A stretch of 18,255 nt of DNA from the UHGV virus genome UHGV-0073224; one strand, 5' to 3'. Shown here one piece after another: positions 1-8,866 of the stretch; the first letter of the stretch is position 1, and every line of letters begins with the position of its first letter. Made by a program: the position numbers and the translations under genes. A model generated the notes under the pieces. It had not been told where the DNA came from. It saw only the letters and a program-made list of their open reading frames with translations, and did not search any database. The stretch comes from a virus.

Positions 1-53
1 CCTTTCTCGTTGCACCACCAGTACTGCTGAATAACGATGTATGATTTGCTCAT
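1..53 (-). CDS. 5' end of a gene that runs off the left edge (partial)
   Basis: ATG at about 53..51 overlaps the stop of the 355-aa ORF (ATGA); reading frame stays open to position 1. Only about 17 codons visible. Confidence 0.3.
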   Translation of the reverse strand, partial: MSKSYIVIQQYWWCNEK

Positions 54-1117
54 AGCGCGGCTCCCTGTCGTAACTGGTCGGCGAGTTCGAATTCACCATG
101 GTTAGTAAATTCGCCTGCAAGTTTTTCTCTTAGCTTCATAACGGCTTCCTTTGCGCTTTCGATATCCTTATGGTGCCCTGCGCTGTACTTCTTCCCGTTA
201 AATTGAACGCTTGCTACATATCGCTTATCGCGCTTATTCCAATAGACCCCCTTGACACCAGTGGTGTTATTTTTCTGGGTTGGTTTGTTGAATTGATTCT
301 GCGATAGAGAGCAAAGGCGCAGGTTTCTTATGCTGTTGTCTTTCTTGATGCCATTGATATGGTCGATAGGCTGGGAAGGCCATTCTCCGTAATGTAGAAG
401 CCATGCTAGACGGTGAGCAAAGCACTTCTTGCCAAACAGCGAAAAGGCGTAATAGCCCTGCCAAGTTTGAGAGCCAATAATTGCTCCTTCCTGACGACCT
501 GCAAAGTTGACTTTCGCGGTAAGAACTCCAGTTTCAGGGTTGTAGTCAATAAGGTCTCTGATATCGCCAACAGACATGAGCAGATTCTTATTAAGGATTT
601 CAATTTCCTTCTGGAGTGGTTCAGATGCCTCACGCCTAACTTCAGCCAGGAAAGCATCGGTGGCTGGGGTTTTGTTATCTGACTCCAGCCACTGGTTGTA
701 GTAATAATCGAACATGCCAGTAGGATAACCACATCCGCCGTGCACGTGGTCTTTCATAGCAGAACCACACATGCAGTAGTCATTGTCAGTATTACTAATG
801 ATGTTGATAAGTTGCTGTGTCCGTTGCTTCAACATCGCATTCTCCGCCGCCAGCGCCGAAAACTTCTCGTGTGCCAACTTAACAGCTGCATCAGCCTGCT
901 TAATTGACTCAGTCGCTTTCTGGTGGTCTTCGGCCAGCCCTGCTAAATCAGCCTCCAGTTCGGCTAGGCGTTCATTTAATGCATCTCGTTCATCCAGTAG
1001 AGCCAGCACAACCTGAGGTGTTACTTTCATACGAAATGCCAGCAATTTTTGAGGTGTTGCTACTGTTTCAATTGCTACTGCTGCCTCACGCAGTACCTGA
1101 TAGTCAATCTTGCTCAC
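50..1117 (-). CDS. Ea22-family mosaic protein: N-terminal coiled coil, central HNH nuclease motif, C-terminal AP2-like DNA-binding domain
   Basis: Track ORF 355 aa. HNH-like motif HRLAWLLHYGEWP...IDHINGIKKDNSIRNLRL; AP2-like segment GVKGVYWNKRDKRYVASVQFNGKKYSAGHH. N-terminal coiled coil and C-terminal tail resemble the adjacent ORF 1114..1713. Confidence 0.7.
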   Translation of the reverse strand: MSKIDYQVLREAAVAIETVATPQKLLAFRMKVTPQVVLALLDERDALNERLAELEADLAGLAEDHQKATESIKQADAAVKLAHEKFSALAAENAMLKQRTQQLINIISNTDNDYCMCGSAMKDHVHGGCGYPTGMFDYYYNQWLESDNKTPATDAFLAEVRREASEPLQKEIEILNKNLLMSVGDIRDLIDYNPETGVLTAKVNFAGRQEGAIIGSQTWQGYYAFSLFGKKCFAHRLAWLLHYGEWPSQPIDHINGIKKDNSIRNLRLCSLSQNQFNKPTQKNNTTGVKGVYWNKRDKRYVASVQFNGKKYSAGHHKDIESAKEAVMKLREKLAGEFTNHGEFELADQLRQGAAL

Positions 1118-1695
1118 TGGTTGCCTCCTTTGCGAAGCTGGTCGGCGATATCTTCGAGAACGCCATCAGAGAATGAGCGGTCAAAATCGCCTTCCGGCGC
1201 ATTAGCCATAAACTCAGTTGAGGTAAGAATCATCCGGGCAATATCCGCTGCGTTCTTCGCAGTATCATCAATAAAACCAGCATCCCAGGCAGCCAGCATT
1301 CTGTTCGCCACAAAGTAAGCGCCTTCCTTGCGTGCTTCAGTCTTCACTTCATCCCAAAAAGCGTCGGTGACTTGGGTTTGCGGCATCCTTCCGTCTATTG
1401 CGCAGATATACGCATCAGATAGTTCACCCTGCTCGCCGTCAAACACGTAGCAACTCTGTACGATAAATTTATTCAGCCACGCATTCTCCACAGCCAGCGC
1501 CGCGCACTTGGCCTCAAGGTTATCAATCGTGATTCCAGCAGAACGACACTCCCGCAACGCCGTTTCTAGTTTTGATTCAAGTTCACCGAACTTACGGACA
1601 AGATATTCAGCGTTTGTTTCGTTAACCTTTAAATCTCGGGGGATGCATTTACCTTTCAGAAAACCATCCATCTCAATTAGTGACATTTGTTTCAT
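1114..1695 (-). CDS. Ea22-like early-left protein
   Basis: Track ORF 1114..1713 begins at a GTG; internal ATG ([10 protein letters not shown]) at 1695 follows a GGAG and overlaps the upstream stop (ATGA). Shares motifs [12 protein letters not shown] and ...[10 protein letters not shown] with the 355-aa neighbour. Confidence 0.6.
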
Positions 1696-1889
1696 TTCTT
1701 CCCACTCCGCCACATAGCATTCAGATATTTGTTTTGATTCACTGATGGAAAAGAATTTCTCTTAAGCAATTCCTCTCTCGATGGCATTGGCTTTACGCGT
1801 TGGCGAATAATCATTTCTGCCGGAAGAATGCCGGGATTGTATGCAAGTCCTCTCATGGTAAATTCCTCAGTCATTACTGATAGCGCCAT
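1692..1889 (-). CDS. small hypothetical early-left protein
   Basis: Track ORF 65 aa, co-oriented and overlapping its neighbours in a coupled chain. An alternative start MTEEF lies about 15 codons in. No recognisable motif. Confidence 0.4.
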
Positions 1890-2186: not shown

Positions 2187-2570
2187 TTAGAAGGGAATTG
2201 AATCGTCGTATTCAGGATGATTTTGATGATTGCTACTTTGCTGCTGTTGGCTGTTTCCTGAGGTTGCAAATCCAATCTTTGCATTCAGTAATTCAAGAGT
2301 GATTGATTGACCATTTTGCCCCTGATAAACATCAACCCTGATGTTTTCTCCGGTAATTTCCACAATGCCACCTTCAACAAGAACACTACGGTAGTAATCC
2401 GCTTGCGCTCCCGGCTTGGCAAATACAACGGCGCTGTAGTTTGTCCATTCTTTCTTTTTTGTCTGGCGATCGTAATACTGAACGCCAGCACGGATGTTGA
2501 ATCCGATATTTTCCCCGGCCTGAAACTCTCTTGCGGGCTTGTTTAGTCTTACAGTAATCGAATGTGCCAT
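2187..2570 (-). CDS. ssb: single-strand DNA-binding (SSB-like, Ea10-type) protein
   Basis: Start MAHSITV at 2570 overlaps the erf stop (TAATG). Gln-rich linker and C-terminal tip ...EYDDSIPF resemble the SSB acidic tail (DDDIPF). Position next to erf fits a recombination module. Confidence 0.7.
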   Translation of the reverse strand: MAHSITVRLNKPAREFQAGENIGFNIRAGVQYYDRQTKKKEWTNYSAVVFAKPGAQADYYRSVLVEGGIVEITGENIRVDVYQGQNGQSITLELLNAKIGFATSGNSQQQQSSNHQNHPEYDDSIPF

Positions 2571-3175
2571 TAAGCAGCCGCTCCTTCTAATTCGTCTCGT
2601 CTGATGTTGTAAACGTCCTGCGCTTTGTGCTGCTCCGGTGTTCCTTCGAGCATCTTCCACGCTTTGGCGAACGCCTGTTTAAGCTCTTCCACGGTGTTTT
2701 TCTGCATTGCTGCGTCAGTGAATGCTTTTAGAACCTGTTCAGGTGTAGGTGATGGTTTTGATTGCTTTGCTACTGCGTTCTGCTGATGTTTATGCTCGTC
2801 TGTATCTGCATCTTTCGCATCATCAATGCCGAACAAACCATTGAGGCAATACTTGCGTGCATAAGAGCTTGTAGCTCCCGTAACTTGTGCAGAATCCATC
2901 CCTTTCTTGCTTTCTTCCTCTCGTGCAAGAGCGGTTGCCGTATGACTGTTTTCGCCATCGGTAATAGTTGCCGTGGCTTTCACGTAATACCGATCACCAA
3001 TCAACACAACTTCATCGCTGATTGATAAAAACAGGCCATTCAGTAACGGCTTAACGCCTTCAAGAATGTCTTCGCAGCTTCTGTATTTATATTTTCCGAA
3101 TGAGTTGTACTGATTCTTTGGCGCGTTCAGATTCTCCTGAATAGCTGCCAGTCTTGCGTAAAATTCTTTGCTCAT
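2570..3175 (-). CDS. erf: Erf-family single-strand annealing recombinase
   Basis: Starts MSKEFYARL... and contains ...SYARKYCLNGLFGI..., matching recalled P22 Erf. The track ORF extends to a TTG at 3205; the ATG at 3175 is the more plausible start. Confidence 0.85.
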   Translation of the reverse strand: MSKEFYARLAAIQENLNAPKNQYNSFGKYKYRSCEDILEGVKPLLNGLFLSISDEVVLIGDRYYVKATATITDGENSHTATALAREEESKKGMDSAQVTGATSSYARKYCLNGLFGIDDAKDADTDEHKHQQNAVAKQSKPSPTPEQVLKAFTDAAMQKNTVEELKQAFAKAWKMLEGTPEQHKAQDVYNIRRDELEGAAA

Positions 3176-3185
3176 ATGATTGTTC

Positions 3186-3356
3186 TCAGAATGGACATTC
3201 CCCAAGGAAATAACGCTGATTTAATACTTCGACTCGGGACAAATTAAGGCATACCCGCATTCCTTCGCGGTCGCCATTATGGCGATACCAGAGAGCTTTC
3301 TGCGTGTACATGCGTCTCTGTAACTTGCTCTCCTTCACTGTGGTTGCAAGTGACAT
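3186..3356 (-). CDS. small protein immediately upstream of erf (Arf-like by position)
   Basis: Not on track (56 aa: MSLATTVKESKLQRRMYTQKALWYRH...). Strong RBS GAAGGAGAT before the ATG; stop 10 nt before the erf ATG. Overlaps the next small ORF by about 80 nt in another frame. Confidence 0.4.
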   Translation of the reverse strand: MSLATTVKESKLQRRMYTQKALWYRHNGDREGMRVCLNLSRVEVLNQRYFLGECPF

Positions 3357-3724: not shown

Positions 3725-4693
3725 TTAGTAGGTTATTTTTGTTGCGAATACTTCGCCTTTTACGATGGCTGTTATGATATTTTTAGCAACATCTTCTGAT
3801 GCACCAACCTTGATAAGGTCAGCAAGTATTTTGTTATTTACTTCTTTCCGGTGAGCTTTATCCTTTGCTCTACGCTCTTCTTCGTCCTTGATTCTTTTTT
3901 CTTCTGCTATTCTGGCTTGCTCTTTTGCTTCAGCCTCGCGCCGGATTCGTTCAGCCTCCTCCTGTGCTTTTCGGCGTTCTGCTTCAATTGCCGCCTGCTT
4001 TTCTCTTTCAGCTCGTTCTGCTGCCTCTTTTGCTTCGCGCTGTGCTCGTTGCTCGGCTTCAATGCGTTCACGCTCTGCACGTTCCGCTGCGGCCTTAGCT
4101 TCTGCTTCTCGCCTTGCTGCTGCTTCAATTTCGGCTTTTGCCTTTGCTTCGGCTTCTGCTCTGGCTTTCTCTTCAGCTTCTCTTTTTAAGCGTTCTTCAT
4201 GCTCTCGCTTTTCCTGCTCCGCTTTGAGTCTTGCCTCTTCTCTTTGGCGGTCAAATTCGCGATCCATCAAAATAGCTATTTCATGGTCAGACTCAATTTG
4301 CTTTGCGAGAGCTTCAGCTGCTGCCTTAGCTTCTTCTTCGGCTTTAATCCGCGCCTGTTCTTCCTCATAATCAGTAAGAGGCTGGCGCGCCTTGGCTTTC
4401 AGCTCATCAAGGCGATCACGCACTGTCTTGCGGTTGGCATCAATTAGCTTTGGAATTTCCTTCAGTTCAGCAACAAGGTCTTTGCCAAGACCATCGAGAT
4501 ATGTTTTCGTCTGCGCAACTTTATACGCCAGAGAAGCGATCTCCTTTCTGCCCTTTGCCGTTGTGATATCAGGCACAAAGGACATAACTTCACGTTCAAC
4601 CTTTTGAAGGATTTCTTCAATCTGGTCGGCAGACTGAAATACAGTCATTGCATTTGCTTTTTCAATAACAACTAAATCTGTTACTTCACTCAT
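3725..4693 (-). CDS. coiled-coil protein with long Glu/Ala/Lys/Arg-rich low-complexity central region
   Basis: Track ORF 3725..4747 begins at a TTG; ATG (MSEVTDLVV) at 4693 has a GGAGGATAT RBS. Central section is EAEAKAKAEIEAAARREAEAKAAAERAERE...; globular N- and C-terminal ends. Confidence 0.6.
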   Translation of the reverse strand: MSEVTDLVVIEKANAMTVFQSADQIEEILQKVEREVMSFVPDITTAKGRKEIASLAYKVAQTKTYLDGLGKDLVAELKEIPKLIDANRKTVRDRLDELKAKARQPLTDYEEEQARIKAEEEAKAAAEALAKQIESDHEIAILMDREFDRQREEARLKAEQEKREHEERLKREAEEKARAEAEAKAKAEIEAAARREAEAKAAAERAERERIEAEQRAQREAKEAAERAEREKQAAIEAERRKAQEEAERIRREAEAKEQARIAEEKRIKDEEERRAKDKAHRKEVNNKILADLIKVGASEDVAKNIITAIVKGEVFATKITY

Positions 4694-4705
4694 ATATCCT
4701 CCGTC

Positions 4706-4734
4706 AAAAAAATTGCCCTCACACTGGAGGGCAA
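4706..4734 (-). terminator. intrinsic terminator-like hairpin (minus strand) just upstream of the coiled-coil gene
   Basis: Plus-strand TTGCCCTC-ACACTG-GAGGGCAA gives an 8-bp stem; on the minus strand it is followed by a 7-T run. Confidence 0.5.
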
Positions 4735-4825
4735 AGAAGATTTCCAATAATCAGAACAAGTCGGCTCCTGTTTAGTTACGAGCGACATTGCTCACATAGC
4801 AGACTCGCAAATCTGCTATAGGTGC

Positions 4826-7513: not shown

Positions 7514-8866
<1,353 letters not shown>

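Follow-up and report, generated by a model that had tools for sequence, protein, structure and literature searches.

On balance, we favour the reading that ORF1 and ORF2, two adjoining open reading frames (ORFs) of the virus genome UHGV-0073224, belong to a combinatorial gene family of the early-left (pL) operon of lambdoid and P22-like phages, and that ORF1 is a predicted oligomeric early nuclease. The whole stretch analysed, 18,255 nucleotides, is called the window here. Both ORFs lie on its minus strand, ORF1 at 50..1117 (355 aa, GTG start) and ORF2 at 1114..1713, and our ORF listing reproduced both at the coordinates claimed in an earlier sequence-only reading. ORF1 is an Ea22-type scaffold fused to an HNH-AP2 nuclease cassette, while ORF2 is a sibling scaffold whose N-terminal module is a different one and whose C-terminal domain is all-helical, without a match to any Pfam family. 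Members of the family are built from an N-terminal module, a coiled coil (ALAAENAxLK), a variable middle, a hinge (TPATDAFLAEV) and an interchangeable C-terminal cassette. The architecture, the module boundaries, the shuffling, the intact active site, the purifying selection and the operon position are directly supported by the results below.

In the Pfam search, an HNH_3 domain was found at aa 233-275 of ORF1 (E 1.4e-15, 57.1 bits versus a threshold of 24.8; window 293-421), as part of an HNH (His-Me finger) nuclease core at aa 186-280 (278..562, minus strand). The predicted catalytic residues D252 (362-364), H253 (359-361) and N277 (287-289), all on the minus strand, were present, as expected if the HNH motif noticed earlier is a genuine one. 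When ORF1 was aligned with 26 diverse relatives, H235, D252, H253, N261, N265, R267 and N277 all fell in invariant columns, and the upstream hairpin region and the HRLAW helix were conserved across the HNH-AP2 family. A profile built from 27 diverse HNH-AP2 proteins reached I-HmuI (1u3e) with an E-value of 5.3e-7, and the pattern DH...N...NLR...N was aligned residue for residue. D74, H75 and N96 of I-HmuI are metal-binding and general-base residues, and we take them to correspond to D252, H253 and N277 of ORF1. The catalytic pattern was kept in all 75 fusion homologues examined (75/75), with a conservative L-to-M/I change in three of them.

The HNH core is followed by an AP2-type DNA-binding domain at aa 286-335 (113..262, minus strand). 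The profile of 27 relatives also matched solved AP2 domains (WRI1 7wq5, 1.2e-5; TEM1 7et4, 2.4e-4). In this region AlphaFold2 predicted strands at 291-294, 299-306 and 309-316 and a helix at 319-338, with a pLDDT of 73-85, and local Foldseek matches to 7et5 and 1gcc were obtained at 1.3-1.4 A rmsd, the whole-protein E-values being not significant. Thus, in the HMM search for the two domains, HNH_3 scored above its threshold, while AP2 stayed below it in Pfam and was backed by the profile of the diverse family. The core is preceded by a connecting helix, RREASEPLQKEIEILNKNLLMSVGD, at aa 161-185 (563..637, minus strand), which was seen only in enterobacterial fusions and is missing from free-standing HNH-AP2 genes. 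The HNH-AP2 segment is the C-terminal domain of ORF1, covering aa ~161-342 and followed only by a 13-aa tail. The sequence-only reading, which had described a central insert with HNH and AP2, was therefore right about the domains but not about their place, since the segment is not central and replaces the C-terminal cassette.

Other searches were mostly negative. Single-sequence searches of PDB sequences returned nothing for ORF1 or ORF2, and a profile of the close fusions gave only noise against the PDB, so that just the diverse HNH-AP2 profile reached I-HmuI and the AP2 structures. No meaningful family was found in NCBIfam. Rfam detected no intron or other RNA (two sub-threshold eukaryotic families only), and Pfam detected no Hint/intein domain in ORF1; an intron- or intein-borne HNH was rejected on these grounds. 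An HNH of the terminase-associated HK97 gp74 type was also rejected, as neither the genomic position nor the Pfam family fits.

The cassette was then compared with its Salmonella version. At 80.6% nucleotide identity, 188 of the 206 amino acids were identical and dN/dS was 0.03, with synonymous sites near saturation between the E. coli and Salmonella versions. The low dN/dS and the high protein identity indicate a protein that is maintained and not decaying. The HNH-AP2 cassette is under strong purifying selection, and the ORF1 nuclease is apparently intact. An assembly or frameshift artefact fusing two genes was rejected, because four independent contigs carry the identical ORF and hundreds of genomes have homologous fusions.

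Homology between the window and other genomes started or stopped at three points, namely the coil motif, the hinge and the gene end. The hinge, a linker of 11 aa (TPATDAFLAEV; 638..670, minus strand), forms the 5' boundary of the cassette, as judged by homology breakpoints, and it contains a 32-nt island that is conserved even at synonymous sites; ORF2 has a variant of it at 1345..1377 (minus strand). The 3' boundary is formed by the ORF1 tail FELADQLRQGAAL with its stop codon and the junction cagGGAGccgcgctATGA (46..91, minus strand), a direct repeat of 1110-1148. The tract in common with an E. coli draft genome reached from the hinge into the second downstream gene, ending ~20 nt beyond its start (99.1% identity), and the one in common with Salmonella ran from the hinge exactly to the stop/start junction (80.6% identity). 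These results showed that the HNH-AP2 part is one of at least 26 (an approximate count) interchangeable C-terminal cassettes lying between two nucleotide-conserved joints, the hinge and a gene-end junction consisting of AAAGGAGG, 7 nt and NTGA. A length of ~30 nt is roughly the homology that phage recombinases of the Red/Erf type can use. Modules are probably exchanged by recombination at short conserved DNA islands, of which one lies in the coil motif, another is the 32-nt hinge and the last is the gene-end junction.

Domain shuffling, which had been suspected from the two ORFs themselves, was borne out by reciprocal chimeras and by combinatorial module pairings in ORFs of viral contigs. In one chimera (P0002) the N-terminus of ORF2 is joined to the HNH module of ORF1 with identical sequence, and in the other (P0076) the N-terminus of ORF1 is joined to the C-terminal domain of ORF2 (74/76 identical). 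The HNH module was found on at least 16 N-terminal types, and the N-terminal part of ORF1 was joined to at least nine other C-terminal domains, that of ORF2 included. Residues 1-161 of ORF1 are 97-98% identical to non-nuclease proteins of phages CurroJimenez, mEp043 and mEp213, whose C-terminal domains differ. The exact 32-nt hinge pattern occurred in at least 120 viral-contig stretches. Among the matches listed, 114 complete hinge-bearing ORFs comprised 25 N-part and 26 C-part types in 52 combinations, numbers that are approximate lower or upper bounds rather than exact counts, modules having been clustered by single linkage and ORF starts taken as the first possible start codon. Ten other C-terminal cassette types had no Pfam domain, and HNH-AP2 was the sole cassette among those examined with a recognisable enzymatic domain.

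The relation between ORF1 and ORF2 themselves was examined by pairwise alignment, as the sequence-only reading had proposed. BLASTP gave three short collinear patches, the coil motif, TPATDAF..EV and ADQLRxG, each of which alone was not significant (E 0.03-0.15), but a gap-tolerant local alignment of the whole chain scored 161 versus 111 +/- 10.5 for shuffled sequences (z 4.7), and none of 2000 shuffles reached that score (0/2000). Both proteins matched PHROG families 368, 614, 492 and 14548 (E 1e-15 to 1e-86). ORF1 and ORF2 are thus linked through shared PHROG families, the chain alignment and the reciprocal chimeras found elsewhere.

Residues 2-88 of ORF1 matched Ead_Ea22 (PF13935) in Pfam (E 8e-9, 36.6 bits versus a threshold of 27). 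The Ead/Ea22 N-terminal signature proper covers aa 1-45 (983..1117, minus strand) and includes VTPQVVLALLDERD, and it is 44% identical to aa 1-45 of lambda Ea22 (E 2e-5). ORF2 had no Pfam match, hence lacks this signature, and showed no similarity to lambda Ea22 (E 0.26). A homologue of ORF2 at 76% identity has PF13935, several others carry NCBI names of the ead/Ea22-like kind, and some ORF2 homologues have a coil segment of the ORF1 type. Since the resemblance to lambda Ea22 is confined to ORF1, ORF2 is better described as a sibling scaffold with a different N-terminal module; judged by its sequence, only the shared coil motif, the hinge and its mosaic relatives make it Ea22-like. The suggestion of tandem Ea22-family paralogs is supported in its core, since both proteins do belong to one mosaic family; ORF1 has PF13935 and homology to lambda Ea22, and ORF2 is without the signature.

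The N-terminal coiled-coil motif claimed for both proteins was confirmed, the quoted ORF2 motif and ALAAENAMLKQ of ORF1 being both present. In ORF1 the joint motif LAAENAMLK (827..853, minus strand), whose DNA sequence (GCGCTGGCnGCGGAGAATGCG) is conserved as well, is repeated directly at 1471-1497, where ORF2 has LAVENAWLN (1471..1497, minus strand); the DNA repeat 828-865 versus 1472-1509 is 79% identical. AlphaFold2 predicted a long helix, taken as a coiled coil, at aa 34-108 of ORF1 (794..1018, minus strand), with block pLDDT values of 81-94 across aa 31-100, and a long helix at aa 26-85 of ORF2. The coil of ORF1 is followed by a variable middle module (aa 109-149; 671..793, minus strand) that differs among family members. 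It contains a Cys/His cluster, CMCGSAMKDHVHGGC, at aa 115-129 (731-775, minus strand), which may be a small zinc knuckle; in the AlphaFold2 model the cluster is disordered, with pLDDT <50 at aa 118-133. Other family members have other Cys-rich middles, for example RCNCCGDELMCH and CPNCSH.

The C-terminal tails, which the sequence-only reading had called similar, are indeed common to both proteins. The tail and junction of ORF2 (cgcAAAGGAGGcaaccaGTGA; 1110..1148, minus strand) contain a consensus Shine-Dalgarno sequence, which is separated from the ORF1 start by 7 nt, and the junction of ORF1 with the next gene, cagGGAGccgcgctATGA, has an SD-like GGAG, a 7-nt spacer and an ATG that overlaps the stop codon. 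The same arrangement was looked at in 79 distinct junctions from loci L010-L129 among the matches listed, where NTGA stop/start overlap was seen in 78 of 79 and AAGGAG or AGGAGG, mostly 7 nt upstream, in 66 of 79. In the same set, the Gly codon of the tail was GGA in 62/68 cases, compared with 52/289 at other positions of these ORFs. Most of the conserved LR(K/Q)G tail can thus be put down to the next gene, whose Shine-Dalgarno sequence and overlapping start codon are read through here as protein; as evidence of homology at the protein level the tail is weak.

A conserved terminal basic-Gly ('+GE') motif has been described for Ea22 proteins, with its significance stated to be unknown (PMC7093339). 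This ending is probably explained by the ribosome-binding site of the next gene as well. Lambda ea22 ends in AAAGGAGAGTGA, where the spacing no longer suits a functional start, and we extend the account to lambda ea22 tentatively.

To turn to the genomic setting, the minus strand of the window represents a leftward early operon that contains both ORFs. It carries a gene for a cI-type repressor (7915-8547), erf (2570-3205) followed by an SSB-like gene, the anti-RecBCD gene abc2 (1867-2163) and a DUF2737 gene (1692-1889), all on the minus strand, the last two upstream of ORF2. Within this leftward operon ORF1 shares the strand of erf, abc2 and DUF2737 and is located downstream of all three. For ORF2, two starts are available, giving 193 aa from ATG 1695 (1114..1695, minus strand) or 199 aa from GTG 1713 (1114..1713). 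ATG 1695 is the more likely one, because it makes an ATGA overlap with the DUF2737 stop, was called on identical contigs and gives the typical length of homologues. The GTG start of ORF1 overlaps the ORF2 stop (GTGA), and the ORF1 stop is overlapped by the ATG of the next gene (ATGA). This ATGA/GTGA/ATGA chain through DUF2737, ORF2, ORF1 and the next gene indicates translational coupling. A promoter and terminator scan found nothing promoter-like or terminator-like on the coding strand. As no separate promoter is evident, ORF1 is probably silent in a lysogen; we infer that expression of the nuclease accompanies that of the early-left operon and is shut off while the prophage is repressed.

The first 2,300 bases of the window were 100% identical to two human-gut metagenome contigs in ENA (ERZ1745642 and ERZ918551), which continue beyond the identical region into an integrase gene adjoining a pectinesterase gene and an aconitase gene. 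The pectinesterase gene beside the integrase corresponds to ybhC, which lies next to the lambda attachment site on the E. coli map. The window belongs to a lambda/P22-like E. coli prophage and is mosaic in its DNA, which is drawn from P22-like and lambdoid coliphages and from Salmonella phages; the corresponding slot is filled in prophages of both E. coli and Salmonella. The same operon contains, outside the window and two genes further downstream than ORF1 (L008 7334-7678), a third Ead_Ea22 gene, which encodes 114 aa ending in ...AAGKGE (Pfam E 2.5e-17), so this prophage has three family members in a row, with one 90-aa gene in between. Also in the early-left operon, at 3725-4747 (minus strand), lies a 340-aa ORF whose repetitive central region is extremely rich in Glu, Ala, Lys and Arg and which has no Pfam match.

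A rival explanation is a domesticated competition nuclease, no longer mobile by itself, that would be made early and be directed by sequence against competing lambdoid phages, prophages, satellites or host DNA. We regard it as possible but doubtful. The strong purifying selection, the universally intact catalytic residues and the stable early-left accessory slot beside anti-RecBCD and recombination functions all fit it, and homing-endonuclease domains have been co-opted in phage-satellite conflicts (PMC10448857). PADLOC, however, found no defence system, giving only a marginal match to HEase ('homing endonuclease', E 0.0027) and coiled-coil noise to LmuB and DruC. Further, the probable silence in the lysogen for want of a separate promoter speaks against classic prophage-encoded exclusion.

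The distribution of the cassette bears on another explanation. In the protein search the identical protein (P0001) was present on 4 metagenome contigs and came from metagenomes only. Salmonella, Enterobacter, Citrobacter and E. coli have the HNH-AP2 module, 74-94% identical, on many unrelated N-termini, with the closest protein versions (94% identical) in Enterobacter. The Salmonella fusions include two clusters, on 561 and 405 contigs, and the fusions are labelled simply 'HNH endonuclease'. At the DNA level nothing matching the cassette (window 54-640) was found in 5,426 complete RefSeq E. coli genomes, even by distant blastn, or in 50,697 deposited phage genomes, while its flanks occur in ~2,000 E. 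coli genomes. We also observed the label 'HNH endonuclease' on proteins of Salmonella phage VSe13 (QOI68480; L003 3031-3657) and phage Dewey (XPK40801; L001 2245-2784) in which Pfam found no HNH domain; one of the two is a plain Ead_Ea22 protein and the other has no Pfam match. The label seems to have passed from Ea22-HNH fusions to non-nuclease relatives.

Presence or absence of the cassette at one fixed slot, with sharp boundaries, is what would be expected of a selfish in-frame homing cassette, whose HNH-AP2 part would cut alleles without the cassette, for example at the hinge/'RAQGV' junction, and which would be copied in by recombination, its short homology arms being supplied by the hinge and the gene junction. 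In keeping with this, many N-termini in four genera carry the cassette, the pairing of HNH with AP2 is an established architecture of homing endonucleases (PMC10448857), the recombinase genes erf and abc2 lie just upstream, and free-standing relatives, 49% identical, exist in T1-like phages. Moreover, the HNH alleles depart from the common 'AEV-RAQGV' continuation directly after the hinge, and many HNH-less alleles have 'RAQGV'. On the other side, non-nuclease cassettes are equally combinatorial, so a nuclease drive is not needed, and the cassette is rare, being present in 2 of the 114 hinge-bearing ORFs (among the matches listed) and in 0 of the 5,426 complete E. coli genomes. Selfish homing genes typically pass through a phase of decay, of which the intact active sites and the dN/dS of 0.03 show no trace; the domain is in frame and not free-standing, with no intron and no intein domain, and the target site is purely conjectural. 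We therefore consider the selfish homing cassette unlikely. Quite unlikely, too, is a self-propagating cassette that cuts Ea22-type alleles bearing other cassettes at or near the hinge and is copied through the ~30-nt hinge and the Shine-Dalgarno/NTGA arms by an Erf-type recombinase. A homing-type drive and a domesticated competition nuclease appear to us about equally plausible.

Under the favoured reading of a combinatorial early-left family with an oligomeric nuclease, ORF1 would be made early after infection or induction, its translation being coupled to that of its neighbours. Lambda Ea22 is a tetramer, and it has a coiled coil at its centre (PMC10834534); by analogy the Ea22-type coiled coil would assemble ORF1 into dimers or tetramers. 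Such an oligomer might unite at least two active sites and would nick or cut DNA where the AP2 domain reads its sites. We infer the oligomerisation, the nuclease activity, the target and the biological role of ORF1 in this way. Distant HNH-AP2 relatives often have a tandem HNH-HNH-AP2 order, suggesting that two HNH units are useful, which fits a need for paired units. Many relatives of 250-390 aa (P0123-P0160) are tandem HNH-HNH(-HNH)-AP2 proteins in which the upstream HNH repeats lack the Asp-His pair, an arrangement that suggests pseudo-dimeric enzymes.

Several points weigh against this reading. No experiment on ORF1 or a close homologue was found in the searchable literature. The oligomeric state is extrapolated from lambda Ea22, with which only the first ~45 residues are in common. 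The Pfam match to AP2 (E 1e-5, 26.1 bits) is below the gathering threshold of 33.3. The AlphaFold2 models, made from shallow alignments, have an overall pLDDT of 65 for ORF1 and 64 for ORF2, and the catalytic core is poor (pLDDT <50 for aa 248-284); Foldseek gave no significant whole-protein match for ORF1 in the PDB because the models are of low confidence and the HNH core is poorly modelled. The shuffling, finally, is silent on nuclease function, as other cassettes shuffle just as freely.

The degenerate first HNH repeat in many distant relatives would also suit a non-catalytic variant, in which HNH-AP2 merely tethers a pro-lysogenic Ea22 regulator to specific DNA. AP2 domains are DNA binders that were co-opted as plant transcription factors, and Ea22 of lambda and of Stx phages favours lysogeny by a mechanism that is unknown (PMC7093339). 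The general-base His, the metal-ligand Asp/Asn and the structural Asn all lie, however, in invariant columns of the alignment and are kept in 75/75 fusion homologues, and a purely structural role is not expected where catalytic residues are retained throughout. We consider this variant very improbable.

We compared ORF1 with known systems. It resembles lambda Ea22 and PF13935 proteins in the N-terminal signature, the predicted central coiled coil, the variable C-terminal domain and the terminal basic-Gly motif, as well as in its slot between recombination genes and xis/int in the leftward early operon. In lambda Ea22 the C-terminal domain is a small alpha/beta domain, acidic and dimeric, whose function is unknown, whereas that of ORF1 is a ~190-aa HNH-AP2 module. 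The Ea22 papers found mention no nuclease variant, and a literature search for Ea22 together with HNH returned no relevant paper. With I-HmuI (1u3e), ORF1 has the His-Me finger motif DH...N...NLR...N in common, but this relation is detectable by profile only, the single ORF1 sequence having no PDB match. I-HmuI is intron-encoded and monomeric, with DNA-binding modules of a different kind from AP2, while ORF1 is an in-frame fusion of a coiled-coil scaffold to a nuclease with an AP2 domain.

Free-standing HNH-AP2 genes, such as Bas77_0074 of a T1-like phage and the 'IPA-HNH' of ICP1, have the same HNH-then-AP2 order as ORF1, and aa 186-342 of ORF1 are 49% identical to Bas77_0074. This superfamily is very large: at E<=1e-3 it has 96,663 cluster representatives, of which 40,278 remain at E<=1e-10. 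The free-standing genes are separate units of ~160-210 aa that adjoin essential or recombination genes, whereas the core in ORF1 has no start of its own, is the C-terminal domain of an Ea22-type protein and is preceded by the family-specific connecting helix. In ShiLan-type elements an HNH lies inside a phage methylase gene in a different frame and interrupts the host gene (PMC11855218). Like these, ORF1 has an HNH within another phage gene without intron or intein, but its HNH is read in the frame of the fusion protein, takes the place of an entire domain and evolves under purifying selection together with the rest of that protein. Taken together, the Ea22-HNH-AP2 combination is common in gut bacteria and abundant in the databases under generic labels, and no paper describing it was found.

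Few early proteins of lambda-like and Shiga-toxin phages are still uncharacterised, and Ea22 is one of them; it biases the choice between lysis and lysogeny, and no biochemical activity is known for the family. Because the HNH-AP2 cassette is the only one examined with a recognisable enzymatic domain, it offers an experimental entry to the question of where the coiled-coil scaffold delivers its cargo. The family is a clean example of module exchange mediated by joints of ~30 nt that are conserved at the nucleotide level, and for the terminal basic-Gly motif a simple explanation can be offered, namely the ribosome-binding site of the next, coupled gene. A homing cassette, if true, would be a fourth housing for a homing endonuclease besides free-standing genes, introns and inteins, and it would act as a nuclease-driven diversification engine for an accessory-effector locus of temperate phages.

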